A stretch of DNA of 58,352 nucleotides, counting the filler, from Thelocarpon superellum (taxonomy: Eukaryota), in the NCBI GenBank assembly GCA_026025795.1. It is 2 parts of 2 records of this genome, joined end to end, with 100 filler letters (N's around TTAATTAATTAA, not from the genome) between each part and the next. Parts side by side here need not be neighbours in the genome. Positions count along the whole stretch, not along the records: positions 29,305 to 58,352 come from JAPEUG010000226.1; 1 more part is not named here. One strand, 5' to 3'. Below are positions 29,305 through 57,127 of this stretch, in pieces. The notes beneath the pieces are model-generated. The model did no database searches. It saw nothing but the letters and a program-made list of their open reading frames with translations, and had not been told where the DNA came from. Positions within the stretch are counted from its first letter, which is position 1, and the number at the start of each line of letters is the position of its first letter. The position numbers and the translations under genes are program-made.

Positions 29305-30246
29305 TCCAAAGATGCATTCGAGACGGTCCTGCAGCGAAGCCACCCCGTCATCATGTCCGGCCTTGACCTTGGGTCTTGTCGGGAAAAGTGGACCTTGCAA
29401 TACCTCAAGGATTGCATCAATGTCAACCGATTGGTCTGTGGAGAGTTGTCCGATCGCGTTGCGGCAGCTAATTTCCTGCAGGTGGTGATCCATCAGGCGC
29501 AAAGCGACCGAATGAACTTCCTCTCCAAGAACTTTTCATATGTCACTCGACGCTGGCATGACTTTCTCGACCAGGTAGACGAGGGAGAACGGGTATATTT
29601 GAGGTCCCTCTCGGCCGAACAGCCTATACAACGCCCAGCAGATCTTGCTCGTGATTTCCCTGAGATCGCTGGGGAATTTCAGCTGCCGCCTGCACTTTCG
29701 TTTGTCAAGGAACACGCCCACAGCTCACCGCTGCGGATCTCGGGTCCGGTGGCCTTGTGGTTACATTATGATGTGATGGCGAATGTGCTCTGTCAGGTCC
29801 GCGGACAGAAACGGCTCGTGCTCTACGCACCGTCCGAGGTTCGTTCTTTGCAGATTCCCGCAGGTGCCACGTCGTCTCACCTCGATGTCTTCGACGACGC
29901 CACCGGCGCTTATCCACCTCTGAACAATGCTCCTCGGCACGAAGCCAACCTCGAGCCGGGCGACGTGCTCTACATCCCGCCGCTCTGGGCGCACGCGGCG
30001 GCTCCCACGCAAGGCCCCAGCATCGCCGTGAACGTCTTCTTTCGCAACCTATCCGATGGATACGCCGCGGGCCGAGACGTGTATGGTAACCGCGATCTGC
30101 AGGCCTATGAGAAGGGCCGACTCGAGATCGCGAGGCTTGTCCGGTCCTTTGCCCCCTTGCCAGGGGATGTGCGGCGCTTCTATCTAGAGCGGCTATCCGA
30201 CGAGTTGCTATGTCTCGCGCACGAGCCCGCCTCGTCTCCATCATGA
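29305..30246 (+). CDS. PPM2: JmjC/cupin C-terminal part of the fungal wybutosine protein Tyw4/Ppm2 (5' part missing)
   Basis: PVIMSGLDLGSC..KWT, MNFLSKNFSY, YLRSLS, HSSPLRISGPV.LWLHYDVMAN, LYIPPLWAH, YAAGRDVYGNRDL. In-frame 48-nt intron at 29434-29481. Confidence 0.8.
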   Translation, partial: SKDAFETVLQRSHPVIMSGLDLGSCREKWTLQYLKDCINVNRLVCGELSDRVAAANFLQVVIHQAQSDRMNFLSKNFSYVTRRWHDFLDQVDEGERVYLRSLSAEQPIQRPADLARDFPEIAGEFQLPPALSFVKEHAHSSPLRISGPVALWLHYDVMANVLCQVRGQKRLVLYAPSEVRSLQIPAGATSSHLDVFDDATGAYPPLNNAPRHEANLEPGDVLYIPPLWAHAAAPTQGPSIAVNVFFRNLSDGYAAGRDVYGNRDLQAYEKGRLEIARLVRSFAPLPGDVRRFYLERLSDELLCLAHEPASSPS

Positions 30247-47976: not shown

Positions 47977-49598
47977 TCACGTACGGCCTCTACCTCTACC
48001 TCTACCGCCGCCTCTCTTACCCCTTCTCACTTCACCACCTCTCTTCCCACCTCCCTTGGGCCGCTCATACATTTTCTCCTTTGCAAATGCGGCGTCGCTA
48101 ATGCGGAGATAACTGACGACGCCTGCGTCCACCACAGCTAGCAAGACGTTTCGATATCCGTGCTTTAGGCGCGCGATTGACTTGGTAGGCCCGCCCATGT
48201 GTTCCGGCGGCGGCTGGTAGGGCGTGCTGGCCATGAGGGCCGAGATCTGCGATAGCGTAGGCAGAGGATCATCTCGGGCCGAGACCACAGCAATCCTATA
48301 GTCCGGTGGACCGGGCATCGATTTCTTGAAATCTGGCTGTGGCTTCCAGACGTGAAAGGCGACGCGGAAGGGTACAGTGGAAGGTGGTGGGGTGGAAAAT
48401 GCCGGTGCGGTTGCTGTCGCTGTCGTTGCGGGTGACGATGCAGCGAGGGTGGGGTCATGCGAAGGGATCGCAGAAAGGAGACGATAAATCTGATCTGTGA
48501 ATCATCAGTACCGCCACGACTTGCTTCACGTATTCGACTGCCTTACTGTAGCTCCGGTACAGGCCCGGCGCGACAAGCGGACCGGCGGGTGGAGGGTCCG
48601 TCTCGCCTTTGGGAAAGATGGAGGTCAAGATCCGGTCGAACAGAGCGGGAAGACCATGGGGCGAGAGGGCATTCTGAGAGGCGGTCGAATGCGTCTGTAT
48701 TGGGGGTGAAGATGGAGCTTCCTTGTCACCTTCATCATCATCGTGATCTTCGCTCTCATCAGTCCACGTCGGCGCCCTCATAACCACATATCCACTTCTC
48801 TTCAGCCCGGCATAGACATTCCACCGCTCCAGCCCGATCTTCCCGCTCGCTTCATCCCCAATACAGACTGCGTACGCACCCTGTAAGCTCATGGGGATAC
48901 CTTGTCCGCCTGTCTGCCCCTCTCCCTCTTCCCCTATCTCCCCCCTCTCCCCCTCATCCTCTCCCTCTCCTTTTTCCTTTCTCCATCCCTTTCCCCTTAA
49001 CCCCTCCCCTTCCCCCTCCTCTTCTCCTCCCGCTCTTTCCTCCCCACCACCCCATCTAACATCCAACCCGCCCCTCTCAAGCAAGTACAGCATCTCCTCA
49101 GGCAGCAGCCAAGTGACGCCATCTCGCGCGGCCCTCCCCATCGTTTTGAAAAGCGATCCCCGCGGGCGCGGTACCGCACACTGGCTACGCGCCGCGTACC
49201 AGTGGCCCAGGACGTGCGACTTGGGGAGGTGCACGCGCGTACTGCTCAGCGCGGCGTGCATTGCATCGCGACTTGCGGCCAGTAGCGCTGCCTGGTGTGC
49301 CGTGCCGTGGGGTTCGAAGTCTTTTTCGCCCCGGCGTGGAATGGTCGGGTGGTCGGTGCTGGTGGGAGGTTAGTTGGTGCTGACCGCGACAAATATCTTC
49401 CAGCGTGCCACGTAAGGGATTGTCGTAGGGTGGAAGTGAGGCAAGATCAGGCAGGATGGAGAGGGAGCGGGAGGATGAGGGGGATATCTACCCTGTCAAC
49501 GTGGAGAGGAACCGGAAATCTTGCGTTTCGTCCGAGAGGTCGATCTCTGTTGGATCAGGGGGAGCGATGCGCACTTCGTCTTCCTCCAGGTCGGCCAT
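47977..49598 (-). CDS. SEN54: tRNA-splicing endonuclease subunit
   Basis: DLSDETQDFRFL, IPRRGEKDFEPHGT, LLPEEMLYLLERG, VYAGLKRSGYVV, FHVWKP..FKKS.PGPPDYRI, RLKHGYRNVLLAVVDAGVVSY. Two introns. Confidence 0.93.
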
Positions 49599-50966
49599 GT
49601 TTGCGATGTGCGGTTTGCCGCTCCAAGTCAACTCGGGAGAGAAAATACGGCGGGTCAACAGATGTCGCTTCTGGAGGAAAGCTCGAAACCACTCTCGATA
49701 CTTGAGGAAGCAAATGCAGAAAGGATACAAGAAGCCTCGCTTTTCTTCCCTTCTAATCTCACGCGCAAGCTTCACAACCCGAAGGCTGAAAGGATCTTTG
49801 CACCAGGTCTTTGGTTTCGTTGCATGGTGTTGTCCCTCGCCGAAGTGAAAGGATGGTCTTGGGAGATGAGTCGCCGCCGGAGCTGTAAGTCGGAATCTCT
49901 CGCCAATTTTGTCCGTTTGATCACTTTCGGAATGACTCCACCACGTCCTGGTTACTTCTCGAGCTGTCTGATGCGTGGGAATATTCATGGATTTATGGAG
50001 ACCAGGTGGATCATAGAAGTCTACAAATTCTTTGAAATCACCTGACAAAGAGAACATCCATGCCGTTGAAAATCAACCCTGCTTTACATCATGCTAATCT
50101 CGGCGCCAACCGGTCACTGGAAATTCCCGCGTCACCCAATTACAGCCAGCGACCCTATTCATGTCTTCGGCCGTTCCAGTCCATAGCATGATGGGCAAAT
50201 GGGTCGGTAGGACTTCATCAGAAGATAACACCTGTGCCATGGGAAAGGCGGTGCAGCTGGTGGATGGCCTCAGCAAAAGATGGCCACTTTGTCAAAGCTC
50301 TACTAGAAGCATTCCAGGTATTTGACGCGAAAAGTCAAGCGACCCTGAGCGCCCCTGATTTACCGGGATTGAGAAGTACAGAGGGATCACCAGAGACGAC
50401 GATTGTCGTCAAACAGGCGCATGCATGGACCCACGGTCATGTTGTTTGCACCACAACACCCGGGGCTCCCTGCATTCACTCGGCAGGAGCGGGCGGGTAG
50501 CGCAAGCCGGCAAGGATTGTCTGGTGCGCGGTTGTGTAAGGAGTGTCTAGCAGACCGTCGTTGCTGGACCCTTGCCCCGCCACAATTCACGTCACGTCAC
50601 GCCACCTTTCCGAGGGTAAGCGAGCCCCACCAATCCTTTTCTACTTCCTCCCGCGGTTCTGTCATACATTTCCACAACGCTCCAACTCCCACTTCCATCC
50701 TTCGCATCAGACCGCTCGAACAGATCCACTCGCGACAGGACTAACTGAACAACAGACCTCATCACTCGCCGAATACTGGTCTGCTTACCTTGGCTGATAC
50801 TCTTGATTGCCGTGTCATCTGGTTGCTTCCATCGTCGCTGACACGACCAGGATCTCCAAAAATCTCCTCTGCTCGCTGGACCTGACCGCTCACCTGCCTT
50901 CTCTTCCGCAGGACTTCCTTCGCCCCTCACCCATCCTCTTCGTTCAAGCCCAGGTGTCCAGCCATC

Positions 50967-51182
50967 ATGTCTGCTCGGCAGTCAGGCCAAGTGAAGTGGT
51001 TCAACGAGTCCAAGGGCTTCGGGTTCATCACCCCGGCCGACGGCTCCAAAGATGTTTTTGTGCACTTCAGCGCCATCCAGGGCGCGGGGTTCAAGACGCT
51101 AGCCGAGGGCCAGAACGTCGAGTTTGAGATCGAAGATGGTCAGAAGGGTCCGACCGCGGTCCGAGTCACGCCCATCGTCTAG
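50967..51182 (+). CDS. Stand-alone bacterial-type cold-shock protein (CspC/CspA family), 71 aa
   Basis: RNP1 KGFGFI and RNP2 VFVHF in [54 protein letters not shown]. Kozak-like GCCATCATG context. Confidence 0.96.
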
Positions 51183-51494
51183 GCAGACCGGGCGGGGATG
51201 CGGCACAGCGGTAAGCTCTTCTCCCGCATGACGGCCAGGCCCTTTCCCATCTTCTCGCTGACTCTCATCTCTTGTCTCGCCTCAGTGCGAATGGGCGAAG
51301 GTCAACGGATACGATGCGATGTAACGGCAATGCGGTGGTACCGCGCGGATTACCTGATTGCTACCACACGGTCGAATTATTCTTTTCCTTTGCCCTCTTA
51401 GTGTAGCGGCGGGCGGATCGAGCCGGGCTGCGGCACCGTGTCGCATCCCTTCCCTTGAGCGACGGATACGATGGTGATGAGGACGCGATGGCAC

Positions 51495-51530
51495 GACGGA
51501 CCACGAAGACGGACCACGACGACGGACCAC
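51495..51530. repeat. 13-bp-period repeat with GACGGACCAC core, 3 copies
   Basis: Cores start at 51495, 51508 and 51521. Confidence 0.8.
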
Positions 51531-51805
51531 AAAGATGCGAGACGTGAACACGAGGAACGGACGGACGAAGAAGGGGAAAAGCAAAACTCATGATGACAAC
51601 TGGGCCATAGTCAGAACAGGGCAAGGAGCAGGGCAAGGATCATTTCGTTAGCAGCTCGGTCATTGACAAGACACACACCATCCTAGTGCGGAGCAGGGCA
51701 AATCAATCAATCATCACTATGCGGAATGGGGAACGGGGTTTCGTCGTGCTCCTCACATCGTGATGTAGACGGTCGAACGGCTCGTGTATCAGACGCGACC
51801 GCATA

Positions 51806-52379
51806 ATGTTGTCCCGTCTAGTACCGGTAAGTAAGCTGCGACCAGATCCAGAGTCATGAAAGCCATGCGTTCATATCCCTCTCTCTTCCTCTCTCGGTCT
51901 CTCCCTAAGTTTTACTCGGACATTATTCATAACAATAGAGCATCAGCTCCAAGCTCAAAGTCCGTCCGATGCCCCAGCAGGGACATCATCATGAGCACGT
52001 AGAGACCAGTCTCCATGCGGACGAGCACGAGCACGCGAAGATGGAAGAGAAGGGAAAACCAATCCCCCGTGAACTCCTTCCCGCTGCCCAAATTCAATCC
52101 ATCAATCAGCCGTACGCGGGCCCCTCCGAGAATATACGTAGCAGAAAGTCGAGGTATCGCTTAACGCCTGCTCCGCCTTCTTTACCTCCCTTTCCCTTCC
52201 CTCCCCTTCCCTTTCTTTTCTGCCCCTTTCCTCCTTGTTCGCTTCCTCGCTTCTTCGTCTTCCTCTTCTGGAGGTCGTATGAGGAGATGGAACTCATGTG
52301 TCGTCCTGAGACTGCAAGACATTCATCTGTCGCCTTGGTCGCGCAGTTTCGTGAGATCATGTGGCGACACGGATGGTAG
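51806..52379 (+). CDS. Small 3-exon hypothetical protein, 98 aa, with a His-rich segment
   Basis: Exons 51806-51826, 51939-52153 and 52319-52379 (donors GTAAGT and GTATCG) give MLSRLVPSISSKLKVRPMPQQGHHHEHVETSLHADEHEHAKME...AQFREIMWRHGW*. Confidence 0.5.
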
Positions 52380-52576: not shown

Positions 52577-53910
52577 CTACTCAATCAATGGCTTCTTCGT
52601 CTTTCCAATCACCGTCAAGCCAAGGGAATGTAATGCGTTGTAGTCGTGCGCGCGGATGATGGTGGGCGCAGGCAGCATGGGATTGTCGGCGTTGACGTGG
52701 GCCGCGTCCTTGGCCGCTTGTTCGATCGCGTCCATCTCCAACTTGCAGTCCGCGTGGTCGTGGGGACAGACGACGATCGGTTGTCGGAGGATGATGTCTT
52801 TGGCGGAGTTCAGGTGCGCCTGGAGTACTCGGTCAGCGGCGGAAACCACGGGGTATAACGACCCACCTACCTTGACGGTGAGGAAATACTCAATCTTGTA
52901 CAGCGATCCCGTCGTCGTGAACCCACTGACGGAGTACATGGGAAACGCCGGTTTGCCCCGCGGTATCACGCCATCGGCGTCCCGAGTGTCTTTGGCGGGA
53001 AAGACCAAGCCCAGGTTGGTGAGGTAGCCCGCCTCAGGCATCTTCACTCCCACCGTCTGCGTCTGCTTCGCCAGTCGATTGACCTTCTTGGTCGGTTCGT
53101 CTCCCTCGTGGTTGTACGTAATCTCCTCCTCGATCCCAATCGTGATCTGCTTGATCGTCACCCGCTTGGCCTTGATCAGCCAGTCGGGATTGGGCGACAG
53201 CTTGATGTAGACGCTGACCGGGTCCAAAGGGCCGTAGGACCACCGTGGTAACGAGATGCCCAGCGTCACCAGATGGTCTGATACCCGCTCCGCCGATTCG
53301 GGCCGGTTGTACATGCCAAAAGTCGACATGGTGTCATATCGTGAGATGGGTACGGGAAACGCATATTTCTTCTGTTCCTGGTGTCCTTGTTGTACCGTCA
53401 CCACCAGTTCATAGTACGTCTCCGCCGTTCGCGATGGTAGTTGCAGCGACGCTGGCGGTACCCGTCGCGCCGTCTCCTCGCCCCCGCGTCCAAAGGGGAT
53501 GAAGAGCACAAAGGGGAGGTCCATGCAGAGGACATTCTCATACTCCCTGCCGGACGCACATCGAAAGAGGAGCATCTCCTTGCCCACGATGTCGGTGATC
53601 TCTTTGCGCGGTGCCGTCAGATGCTTCTTCGTCACCGAGTCCGCCGATGGATGGATCGTCTCGCGCCGGATCAGGGCAATTGTGATGAGCGAGATGGCCA
53701 CAGGGGCCGAGATGCCTTCCCCGGGTCGCACCTCGACCTTGCCTTCGATGCGCGGCTACATCCGCCCGCCCGTATCAGTTCCTCCGCGTCCGCGCATCAC
53801 CTCCAAGCCTCCACGGAGAGGGAGAAGCTCACCAAGGTTGCTGAGATGCCTGGATACCCCACCAAGTAGTTGCTGTTGGGTGGTCCCGACACCCGGACGA
53901 ATGCCGCCAT
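52577..53910 (-). CDS. Arrestin-fold protein (resembles S. pombe Art1-type fungal arrestins)
   Basis: VRVSGPPNSNYLVGYPGISATL/PRIEGKVEVR, MDLPFVLFIP, PPASLQLP..AETYYEL, YDTMSTFGMY, FTTTGSLYKIEY. Two introns (second at 52820-52870). Confidence 0.8.
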
Positions 53911-54694
53911 CCTCGCCCGGAAGGCTGCACGCCGCGTCAGTGAGCCGTCGACTCCTTGGGGCTGCGCACCGAGGGGCGCGAGTGCGACGTACGGCCCGTG
54001 GGCCAGATTGGAGGCGCGCCGGAATTGCAAGGGCCGCCTCCGGGCGGAGCAGGACTAGGTTATGCTTTGCGACTCGGCCGATGACGGAGAGGTCCGTCGA
54101 CGCTTCGAGTGAACCATGTACAATGGAGGCGGCAACTTCCTGGAGCGACGCAGGAAGCGTGTGGTGCGGGGCGGGGGCTGTGCGGACGAACTGGCGATGC
54201 GGCCGTCCGAGGGCGTCGGGCAAATGTCGGTGGGCGGTAGGAAAGGAGGGCCGATGAATCAGACAGCCTGCGTGGCACCGTGGCTGGTGACGAGCGTCGG
54301 AGGGTGCAAGCGCGTGCTGGTAGGTAGCCAGCCAGCCAGGTGAGGGCCCCCGGCGTCTCTACTGGTGCTTCTCGGTGTGTAGCGAACCACGGCCTACGAC
54401 GATACCAACACAACCGGAGTTCGGGTGCCAGCTTGTCCCTCCCAAGACCCGACAGCCCAGTCAGTGGCGCTTGGCAGCGGTGGGTGAGGTGGTCTGGGCT
54501 CCCCCGCTAGAACTGCAGCTAGGATGCGGCGCATCCGAGGGGGCCATTCGAGTAACAAACTACTTAGCAGGAAGGCAAACGACGTAAAGTCGCTCGATTA
54601 TCATGCAGCACAACTTGATCCGTACTGTTGACGATCCGTCTTCTCTGCTTGCCGGGGCTCGAGGCCAGAAAGATGCTCGTGCGAGCATCACGCA

Positions 54695-55364
54695 ATGTCT
54701 GTCACGGTAGGCGTGGACTGAAGTGCACAAGTCGCCGGATGTTCCATCCTCAGCTGACTCGTTCTTCTGCTAGGTGCATACGAACGTCGGTGACCTGAAG
54801 ATAGAAATCTTCTGCGAGAGCGTCCCCAAAACCGCCGAGGTATGCGTGTGGCCCTCGGCGATCCACACACAAGACTAAGCGCGGTGCAGAACTTCCTTGC
54901 ACTGTGTGCATCGTCATATTATGATCAGACCAACTTTCATCGAAACATCCCCGGATTCATGATCCAGGGTGGCGATCCCACCGGCAAAGGCAAGGGCGGC
55001 GAATCCATCTACGGCCCGCACTTCGAGGACGAGATTAAACCGGCGTTGCGACATAATGGCCGGGGTGTGGTAAGCATGGCCAATCGTGGTCCAAATACCA
55101 ATGGCAGTCAATGGTTCATCGCATACGCTGCGGCTCCGCACCTGGATGGCAAGAATACGGTGTTTGGCAAGGTAAGGGATTCAGGTGTACTTTTCTGGCT
55201 ACATTGCCTTGGCTCGTTCGCTTACATGGGCTTCACAGCTCCTTGATGGGAAAGATACGACACTAGATGTGATGGAGAAGAGGGAGGTGGACAAGAAGGG
55301 TCGACCCCTGGAGCCCATCACGATCAAGAGCATTACGATTCATGCCAACCCTCTGGCACAATGA
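54695..55364 (+). CDS. PPIL3: Cyclophilin, peptidyl-prolyl isomerase-like 3
   Basis: [51 protein letters not shown]...[12 protein letters not shown]...ITIHANPLA. Three introns. Confidence 0.93.
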
Positions 55365-55505: not shown

Positions 55506-57127
55506 TCACGCCTGCTCATGCTCAAGCTCATGCTCTTTGGATGGCACGTGGAGCTCCTCGTCTTTGATCTCGTAACCCTCGACCTTGATGTCATTCAAGC
55601 CGAGGTCCTCCTTTTCATCTTCGGTCCGTTCGTAGTCCTCGATGACCATCTGCGGGTCGGGGTCTGGTGTCCGGAGATTCTGAACATAGCTGGCGGCCAA
55701 AGGATCTTCAAGCACGATGCTGAATTTCATCTCGGCCCGGATGGCCTTGCCAAGGTTGTCGAAAAAAGTCCCCCACGCCGTCTTTTCCTGTGACGCCATC
55801 GAATCTCCCGTCTTTGTGCCTTCGCCGAAGACATCGAACACCTGAGAGTGGAGATCATCCCGAATCTGGGTCAGGAGGCCTTCCAACGTGGTGAATCGTC
55901 CACCCAGCGTGCCGGGATTGACGGCGAGGTCGAGTTCGGGGCAAGAGAGGGCGCACGATTCGGATTTGAGCACGTCCCGGCCAAGATCTTCCGGCCCCTG
56001 CACGTGCAGCGTAATTCGACGACCTTGGGACGGCACCAAGCCGCCCGTCTTGACCTCATTACTCCGATCTAGAATCGACATCAGCAGGACAATAGACCCG
56101 TGCTTGTCTTGAGACTCACAGCCGCACAAATGGCAGACCGTGCTCATGATCACCACCTCTTTGAAGTGTGGGATGTTGACCATCTTCATGTGGGTGGAGC
56201 ATGGTCTGGTGCACGAGGGACAGCTGGCGGGAAACGAATACACTTCATCCGGCACGATCTCAGATTGAAACGCCTCCCCGACGCCACCGGCCGAAGTGGT
56301 CTTCTCCGTCGGTGGTGCTACGGCAGGTTCAGGCAATGACAAGGCCTCGTTCTGTTCCGGTGATCGGCGGTACTGTGTGCGAGTCCATCGGTGATCTACA
56401 TTGTTCGGAGACGGCTGTATCATAGAGTTTCCCGCTGGATCATCTAGGAGCAGGGTCAGGGGGAAGTGCTCCCCTGCCATAAAGGCTTTTCCTCGCGTGA
56501 TGACTGTGTCCAGTTCCGCGTGTAGCGTCGGGTCCAGCGTCTGTCTCGCTGGCTGTGCCAACTCCAAGTCGTCGATGATCATCGTCAAGAGACTCTCGAT
56601 GTTGGTGATCTGCCCTCGACCCGACGGGATCTCCACGTCGAGTTCAAGGAACTTGGCGATGCATGTTTCGCTTTTGATCACCTGCCGGGAGAAGTCCTCC
56701 ATCCCATGGAGTACGAAGCTGTAGCGACGTCCGAACTCTTGAATCTTGCCCGCCGACTGAATGTTGGAGTCTTTGAAGTGGCAATGAGGGCAGGCGAAGG
56801 AGGACAGGATCACTTCGTGGAAGTAGGGGATCCGAGTAAGTAGCAAGCGTGTTGTACCCTAGATCTCCATCACGCACGTCAGCGGGATCGCTCTTCGGTC
56901 TCCCTAGGCATCATCTAACCCCCTACATTTTCGTGGCAGTTCATGCAGAGACTCTCAATCTCATCTACTGGCTGAAGTTCGCCCTCGCTTTCGCTTTGCC
57001 CCACCTGGAGTGATTCCACTTTTTGCCCCACGCTCTCAAATAGCTCCGTCTCGTAATTCTCACTCCCCGACCCGGCAGCAGATTGGGCGTTCGCATTCAT
57101 CTGGCTCTGATTCTGTTGGTCGGCCAT
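55506..57127 (-). CDS. ZPR1: Zinc finger protein ZPR1 (eEF1A chaperone)
   Basis: IESLCMNCHEN/G.TRLLLTRIPYFHEV..SFACPHC; second finger CPSC...CHLCG; GTLGGRFTTLEGLL. Introns at about 56859-56924 and 56069-56119. Confidence 0.96.

Follow-up and report, generated by a model that had tools for sequence, protein, structure and literature searches.

The locus described here raises the question of how a gene for a bacterial-type cold-shock protein (CSP) comes to stand among eukaryotic genes in a fungal chromosome. The gene was found in what we call the window, the whole stretch of 58,352 nucleotides (filler included) analyzed from the fungus Thelocarpon superellum (assembly GCA_026025795.1), whose positions 29,305 to 58,352 come from record JAPEUG010000226.1. 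We consider it probable that a bacterial gene of the CspC/CspE type was captured by an ancestor of Thelocarpon and is now a working nuclear RNA-chaperone gene; its expression, its chaperone activity and the stress in which it is relevant are parts of this picture that we infer. A first-pass annotation of the stretch had likewise proposed horizontal acquisition, and this proposal is now backed by nesting among bacterial sequences, integration at flank depth, host codon usage and the presence of the gene at the same locus in a second Thelocarpon species.

The gene is an intronless, uninterrupted open reading frame (ORF) of 71 aa at 50967-51182 on the plus strand, with ATG at 50967 and TAG at 51180-51182, and the earlier reading of it as a single cold-shock-domain (CSD) protein is borne out by both the ORF and Pfam. 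The Pfam CSD profile PF00313 (profile positions 2-65/66) matches residues 6-69 with E 4.1e-32 and 110.3 bits against a cut-off of 27, and no second Pfam domain was found in the ORF except a sub-threshold OB_RNB match which overlaps the CSD. Among the sequences of solved structures the top match is the CspC chain 8h1i_B (E 5.2e-37), followed by Salmonella CspE 3i2z and E. coli CspA. The first-pass annotation had given about five differences from E. coli CspC in residues 7-70, and this number is exact against the solved CspC: 59 of 64 residues (92%) are identical to 8h1i_B and the five differences are at positions 40, 56, 63, 66 and 69. Two motifs, KGFGFI and VFVHF, which we take to be the RNP1 and RNP2 of the CSP literature, are identical to those of CspC, CspE and CspA in alignments with the solved chains, and in an alignment of 25 rows K16, G17, F18, G19 and F20 of the former are invariant (I21 nearly so), as are F31, V32, H33 and F34 of the latter. 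With a lone CSD of about 65-70 residues and both RNP motifs the protein belongs to the CspA family. The AlphaFold2 model built from a 25-row alignment has a mean predicted local distance difference test (pLDDT) score of 85.4, with beta strands at residues 4-13, 18-23, 30-33, 50-58 and 61-69, and Foldseek, run against the PDB, matches it best to CspE 3i2z_B and CspC 8h1i_B (template modelling, TM, score 0.90-0.95, E about 3e-12); the predicted five-stranded antiparallel beta-barrel (OB fold) is the one expected of the CspA family. The start codon has an A at -3, in agreement with the Kozak-like start noted earlier, and the reported lack of a Shine-Dalgarno sequence is essentially right, apart from a weak AGGTG 10 nt upstream of the start to which we gave no weight. 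The N-terminus, MSARQSG, is nearest to those of two other Thelocarpon-type proteins and to the 70-aa "MS.K..G" CspE-like forms of Morganellaceae and Yersiniaceae.

Relatives were sought in a collection of 5.8 billion proteins, with a listing of the best 120 among 8000 scored candidates, and in a second search with a three-row profile. Almost all named proteins in the best 120 of 8000 are CspC/CspE of Enterobacterales, 88-92% identical over the core. Duplicated or extended artefacts aside, the closest proteins are P0003 (89%), from an ENA metagenome contig of 1379 bp, and P0020 of Thelocarpon impressellum (82%); the first best-120 list holds one further fungal protein, P0114 of Dactylonectria macrodidyma. 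In the ESM Atlas just bacterial CSP clusters and the exact CSP sequence itself were found. Threonine at position 63 is present in 4 of the 129 proteins scored, three of them being the window protein, P0003 and P0020. A bacterial scan of one genome per species with the patterns QVKWFNE and SKGFGFIT, biased by its design toward the CspC/CspE subgroup, gave at least 80 loci; among those listed the 17 best, 16 from Enterobacterales and one from Streptomyces, are 87-89% identical over residues 3-70, and other Gammaproteobacteria reach 70-82%.

Two trees were calculated from these sets. The first, calculated over 70 columns from 79 protein-search sequences 66-73 aa long, unites the window protein, P0003 and P0020 in a clade with support 99/89 and places the Dactylonectria protein away from it, with the 69-aa CspC/CspE group. 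The second, with 79 named bacterial species of the pattern-drawn sample, four eukaryotic rows and 69 columns, puts all four eukaryotic rows within a clade of 76 rows (support 99/97) that leaves seven other Gammaproteobacteria outside; the 72 bacterial rows of this clade are nearly all Enterobacterales, the exceptions including three Gilliamella, one Streptomyces and one Planktothrix. In these alignments the Thelocarpon CSP is phylogenetically nested, with support, among the CspC/CspE sequences of Enterobacterales. A broad, vertically inherited fungal clade, which the first-pass annotation had named as contrary evidence to look for, was not seen: the clade of the first tree is narrow and consists of the window protein, that of T. 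impressellum and one metagenome protein. A degenerate DNA pattern of its signature, V-E-F-[DE]-[IV]-E-D-G-Q-K-G-[PL]-T-A, matched 0 stretches in JGI metagenome contigs.

Whether the gene is really part of the fungal genome was examined by comparing the window with contigs derived from the reads of a sequencing run, X1, which contains 96% of the sampled words and is probably the source run. One X1 contig (50250-51029, depth 130) leads from the 5' flank into the ORF and another (51000-51867, depth 165) from the ORF into the 3' flank, both with 0 differences, and the contigs flanking the gene have depths of 95-173. The earlier note had named a coverage break or chimeric join around the ORF as evidence to the contrary; no break between ORF and flanks is present in the listed contigs, and the depth on both sides is that of the flanks. 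Codon usage is also that of the host. The G+C content at third codon positions (GC3) of the CSP ORF is 0.79, compared with 0.61-0.81 in eight pieces of host ORFs and a bacterial median of 0.44, so that the GC3-rich codons, described previously as similar to those of the neighbours, lie within the host range. The match to E. coli DNA is confined to ORF positions 18-194, with 76.3% identity in 5418 of 5426 genomes (query ORF or 3-kb region); with the 3-kb query no E. coli similarity was found outside the ORF core, the 49599-50966 region included. The near-100% nucleotide identity to a bacterium that would have suggested contamination is far from what was found, the highest value over the core being 78.7% among the 79 bacterial species listed. 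At conserved residues the 15 closest listed bacteria agree with the ORF in a fraction of 0.40-0.59 of third positions, and synonymous sites are therefore close to saturated. A retained bacterial cspA leader was considered and rejected: the Rfam model for it reaches 48.4 bits where the gathering score is 78, and the letters that match belong to the coding part, so that the score is carried by coding-sequence homology.

These results bear on the possibility of an assembly artefact or contamination, that is, of bacterial csp reads joined by mistake to a fungal contig when metagenome data were assembled. The assembly is of the metagenome-assembled genome (MAG) type, all four runs show loose ends between 50988 and 51044, a sign of csp genes sharing the motif, and the X1 contigs do break within the ORF at 51000-51029; the reason for this break at the KGFGFI codons is that the run contains other csp genes with the same stretch. 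Such an origin is nevertheless extremely improbable, as each half of the ORF shares a contig, at flank depth and without differences, with the fungal flank next to it, GC3 is that of the host, identity to the DNA of the listed bacteria is low, and a second species, assembled separately, has a CSP gene adjoining the same gene, SEN54. The CSP gene is physically linked to fungal DNA at host-like depth and is not contamination.

The surroundings of the gene are eukaryotic on both sides (Table 1). The order is SEN54 (-), CSP (+), arrestin (-), cyclophilin (+) and ZPR1 (-), and the position between SEN54 and an arrestin gene, already recognized in the first-pass annotation, is confirmed by Pfam matches to PF12928 on the left and PF02752 on the right. 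The exons of SEN54 are outlined by tblastn with P0265 (462 aa), which aligns in three pieces. The arrestin gene probably continues upstream to about 54350, its inferred upstream part (53759-54358) having no Pfam match, and ZPR1 is 100% identical to the T. superellum protein P0145 in exon 1 and 96% in the remainder, which was read through an intron. Further eukaryotic genes identified by Pfam in the window are RNA-cyclase-like, the large chain of carbamoyl-phosphate synthase and an ERCC4 nuclease. The GC content of 50000-50966, within the region upstream of the CSP start, is 0.542. A repeat search around the gene found no direct or inverted repeats of the mobile-element type flanking it.

Table 1. 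Positions in the window of the CSP gene, its motifs and its neighbours
Feature	Position	Strand	Basis
CspC/CspE-type single cold-shock-domain gene (CSP)	50967..51182, stop included	+	ORF, Pfam CSD, likeness to CspC, model
RNP1 nucleic-acid-binding motif KGFGFI, residues 16-21	51012..51029	+	25-row alignment
RNP2 motif VFVHF, residues 30-34	51054..51068	+	25-row alignment
SEN54, tRNA-splicing endonuclease subunit, left neighbour pointing away from CSP	48052..49598	-	Pfam PF12928, E 8.2e-23
Divergent intergenic region from SEN54 start to CSP start, 1368 bp; presumed eukaryotic promoter and CSP 5' untranslated region	49599..50966
C-terminal exon of an arrestin-domain gene; neighbour on the right, transcribed toward CSP	52577..53755	-	Arrestin_C PF02752, E 9.4e-12
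Cyclophilin-type peptidyl-prolyl isomerase, second gene from CSP toward ZPR1	about 54794..55364	+	Pro_isomerase PF00160, E 1.3e-35; ORFs
ZPR1 zinc-finger gene, used as anchor of taxonomy and synteny	55509..57127	-	Pfam ZPR1 domains

The same arrangement is present in a second species, and this comparison of loci tells us most about the gene. One contig of T. impressellum (563,040 bp) carries SEN54 (KAI9828152.1), CSP (KAI9828153.1) and ZPR1 (KAI9828156.1), and the consecutive accessions give the order SEN54, CSP, two proteins, ZPR1, which is the order of the window. The two species are about 63% identical in ZPR1, about 52-63% in SEN54 and 82% in CSP. Because the gene occupies one locus in two deeply diverged Thelocarpon species, it must be older than their split and conserved since. 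Thelocarpon is placed in Thelocarpales, leotiomyceta incertae sedis, in the NCBI taxonomy, and a phylogenomic study from 2025 groups it with Sarcosagium, Caeruleum, Piccolia and Vezdaea in a Lichinomycetes of widened scope (PMC12238968). Three outgroup genera have SEN54 and ZPR1 on one contig: Sarcosagium campestre (KAI9809161 and KAI9809164), Phylliscum demangeonii (KAI9834167 and KAI9834164) and Caeruleum heppii (KAI9679509 and KAI9679512). By accession spacing the gap in each of them holds two proteins, while in Thelocarpon it holds three. The simplest reading, from accession counts and not from DNA, is a conserved block of SEN54, arrestin, cyclophilin and ZPR1 into which CSP was inserted beside SEN54 in the Thelocarpon lineage. 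We also scanned metagenomes with a 17-row ZPR1 alignment and obtained 80 fungal loci around ZPR1, many of them short; none of these 80 contains a CSP gene or, at E 1e-5, an arrestin homologue, and none is a clean empty site, and in three (L101, L131 and L155) SEN54 lies within 10 kb of ZPR1 in a rearranged form.

From these observations the following course of events is probable. A CspC/CspE-type gene of a bacterial donor would have passed by horizontal transfer to the common ancestor of T. superellum and T. impressellum and entered intergenic DNA with SEN54 on one side and the arrestin gene on the other. Only the coding sequence of the donor would have remained, the flanks being fungal and the bacterial leader lost, and its synonymous sites would have been recoded to the GC3-rich usage of the host while the core of the protein was kept almost unchanged.

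It can be asked whether the gene came to Thelocarpon by another route. One such route is that CSP was gained once, early in Pezizomycotina or at any rate before the Thelocarpon/Hypocreales split, and afterwards inherited vertically and lost in most lineages, in which case the Thelocarpon gene would be no independent transfer. When the four eukaryotic rows of the second tree were held together as a single clade the log-likelihood was 4.3 lower and the approximately unbiased (AU) test did not reject it (p 0.40), and the conservation of CspC is such that two fungal descendants of old age would both still appear nearer to it than to one another. The distribution of the gene makes this route unlikely all the same: Sarcosagium, Phylliscum and Caeruleum apparently lack it at the conserved SEN54-ZPR1 locus, the 80 fungal metagenome loci around ZPR1 are without it, other lichen-fungus MAG species which were found for ZPR1 are absent from the best 120 of both CSP searches, and the first tree separates the Dactylonectria protein from the Thelocarpon clade.

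Transfer from another CSP-bearing fungus, for example a Hypocrealean, and not directly from a bacterium is quite unlikely too. It would suit the fully eukaryotic codon profile and context, the unrejected monophyly with Dactylonectria and the presence of bacterial-type CSPs in Hypocreales (literature; P0114). It does not suit the placement in the first tree, the 79-80% identity of the Thelocarpon-type rows to Dactylonectria compared with 87-93% to bacteria over the core, or the lack of flanking fungal donor DNA or of a repeat that would mark a transferred segment. Pairwise identity was, however, rejected as a test of independent origin: the contrast of 80% between the window and Dactylonectria proteins with 87-93% to CspC is uninformative because bacterial CspC is so conserved, the bacterial protein being nearly frozen.

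Direct capture from a bacterium is preferred over both routes, and we lean slightly to the view that Thelocarpon acquired, in an event of its own, the same enterobacterial-type CspC/CspE gene that is also present in Hypocreales (Metarhizium CRP1, Isaria, Dactylonectria). Its possible independence of known fungal CSP transfers had been suggested in the first-pass annotation; the apparently empty sites and the first tree agree with this part, and the AU test, in which Dactylonectria stands in for the Hypocrealean CSPs, leaves it unproven. Independence from other fungal CSPs is likely, the trees alone being insufficient to decide it.

Several points count against the explanation given here. None of the listed contigs spans the whole ORF, and the two X1 contigs that share it overlap by just 30 nt (51000-51029). 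The bacterial sample was drawn by patterns and is hence biased toward the CspC/CspE subgroup, and the trees have 69-70 columns and many forks that are not resolved. With so few columns the donor can be named only as "CspC/CspE type, as in Enterobacterales", and, as CspC/CspE-like genes also occur in Streptomyces and Planktothrix, the direct donor was possibly no enterobacterium at all. The free search of the second tree failed to recover the three Thelocarpon-type rows as a clade; when they were held together the log-likelihood was higher by 6.4 (p-AU 0.61). The empty site is deduced from accession spacing, and the annotation of the outgroup MAGs could have missed a 70-aa gene; CSP was annotated in both Thelocarpon species, in what look like sister MAG records. 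As to function, induction by cold is true of some members of the CspA family only; E. coli makes CspC and CspE constitutively, and neither is known to be induced by cold, so that the family name alone predicts no role in the cold.

What the protein does can be approached from its conserved residues. In the 71-aa barrel the aromatic and basic residues within KGFGFI and VFVHF would form the binding site for single-stranded RNA or DNA, and by keeping RNA unfolded the protein would be an RNA chaperone and a stabiliser of mRNA in the fungal cell; nucleic-acid binding and RNA melting, which in the family go with chaperone or antiterminator activity, are suggested by the 92% core identity to CspC. 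Such a chaperone would aid translation and RNA metabolism when cold, freezing or drying stabilise the secondary structure of RNA, and it may have the role in cold or desiccation tolerance proposed in the first-pass annotation. That the gene is instead a decaying relic, a transferred fragment neither expressed nor functional, is very improbable. The window gene, its T. impressellum counterpart and one metagenome sequence all have an intact ORF that begins at the same start; where the neighbouring genes have fallen to 52-63% identity between the two species the CSP stays at 82%, with every residue of the nucleic-acid-binding motifs kept, and the synonymous sites have been recoded to host usage with no damage to the protein.

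Comparison with known systems clarifies in what respects the Thelocarpon protein is unusual. Like CspC (8h1i/8xyf) and Salmonella CspE (3i2z) of Enterobacterales it consists of a single CSD of 69-71 aa with, as predicted, the same five-strand barrel. It differs from them in its N-terminus MSARQSG, in the derived residues T63 and R66 and in the C-terminal PIV, and its gene stands in a fungal chromosome among eukaryotic genes, without yobF, the cspC leader or bacterial flanks; it is a descendant of the CspC/CspE subgroup that is no longer a bacterial locus. With the Y-box proteins, Lin28 and the plant CSD/glycine-rich proteins, which carry auxiliary domains (zinc knuckles, glycine-rich or basic/aromatic tails) beside the CSD, it shares the OB-type cold-shock fold and the RNA-binding surface (Foldseek ranks 25-50). 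These families are distant from it, since the Thelocarpon protein is a bare 71-aa domain much nearer to bacterial proteins: by Foldseek the model has 35-51% identity to eukaryotic CSDs over the aligned domain and 73-89% to CspC/CspE chains. The "cold shock-like protein cspe" of Dactylonectria macrodidyma (P0114, KAH7153357.1), encoded on a 3.6-Mb contig, is also of the CspC/CspE type and 79-80% identical; unlike the Thelocarpon CSP it has an annotated N-terminal extension of 16 residues and has kept the bacterial states N40, Q56 and A63.

The closest functional model is CRP1 of Metarhizium (Fang & St. Leger 2010, Environ Microbiol 12:810), a stand-alone bacterial-type CSP of an ascomycete as cited in passages of PMC7776561 and PMC5638334. 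CRP1 is reported to protect against freezing; the former paper calls CRP1-type responses "unique among fungi", and the latter mentions a cold-induced homologue in Isaria cateniannulata. Both CRP1 and the Thelocarpon CSP are stand-alone bacterial-type CSDs in a fungal nuclear genome, of the kind called "eubacteria-like" in Hypocreales, a likeness drawn from the description and not from the sequence of CRP1; their hosts belong to Hypocreales (Sordariomycetes) and Thelocarpales, respectively. Given the Thelocarpon CSP and the Dactylonectria protein, the phrase "unique among fungi" is too narrow. In our literature search CRP1 was the sole fungal CSP found to have been studied experimentally; the search gave nothing on CSPs of Thelocarpon or Lichinomycetes and, beyond the citations of CRP1, no CSP transfer into Pezizomycotina.

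The protein is already on record in NCBI and represents neither a new kind of protein nor a new mechanism; it is a well-supported case of gene transfer from bacterium to fungus, the lineage being one without a described transfer of this type. Claims of bacteria-to-fungus transfer in Pezizomycotina are currently disputed, two recent papers calling them into question (PMC11273514, PMC11898892). The lines of evidence which critics usually demand are found here, namely linkage at host depth, host codons, the same locus in two species and supported nesting, together with an apparently empty site in three outgroup genera (by accession spacing). The known range of bacterial-type fungal CSPs is thereby widened beyond Hypocreales, and the gene, being very small and easily assayed, is suitable for studying how a bacterial ORF turns into a eukaryotic gene. 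If the capture was indeed separate, unrelated ascomycetes would have repeatedly domesticated one bacterial RNA chaperone. The single insertion site and the apparently empty sister sites would then form a natural experiment in which a naked coding sequence gained a eukaryotic promoter and host codons, and the gene possibly adapts these tiny ephemeral lichen fungi to life with frost and desiccation.

Some observations were made on the same material apart from these questions. SEN54 and ZPR1 form a small conserved neighbourhood, lying few genes apart in Thelocarpon, Sarcosagium, Phylliscum and Caeruleum, and the Vezdaea SEN54 and ZPR1 proteins were reported from contigs of equal size. The ZPR1 identity between the two Thelocarpon species (about 63%) is hardly above that to other classes (55-60%). 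Two ENA proteins, P0150 (ZPR1, 63%) and P0267 (SEN54, 71% over matched stretches), are each from a contig of 27,368 bp, probably the same one, and the fungus they come from, about as near to the organism of the window as T. impressellum, may keep the SEN54-ZPR1 linkage. In the 3' flank of CSP, at 51493-51535, a 13-nt unit occurs three times in tandem, the copies as displayed being 17 nt long and 88-94% alike.

CspC/CspE-type genes were also seen in assemblies of Streptomyces, Kitasatospora and Planktothrix: L016 (Streptomyces yunnanensis), L067 (Planktothrix sp.), P0086, P0096, P0141, P0093 and P0117. One of these genes from outside Enterobacterales is on an 8.6-Mb contig and L016 has a GC3 of 0.75; transfer between bacterial phyla, and not contamination, may explain them. 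Among the entries of the protein collection are a number of odd sequences, in which enterobacterial CspC is fused at shifting points to one unrelated N-terminal peptide (P0013, P0023, P0043, P0054, P0067, P0069, P0085, P0097 and P0102-P0104) or, in P0050, to a different one, and P0001 has an internal duplication. These odd forms seem to have arisen by frameshift or deletion or from starts that were wrongly called, and they inflate the top of the match lists.

Two moss-metagenome runs (X2 and X3) and a leaf-litter run (X6) contain near-identical short pieces of the flanks (e.g. 50327-50734, 50534-50859 and 51212-51435), which hints that the window fungus or a close relative occurs in those samples; none of the listed pieces bridges into the CSP ORF. 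In X1, contigs at 49696-49775, 50088-50192 and 51868-51934 have about one third of the total depth (54-57 of 154-177) and many differences in the non-coding flanks, and may represent a second allele or a second related strain.

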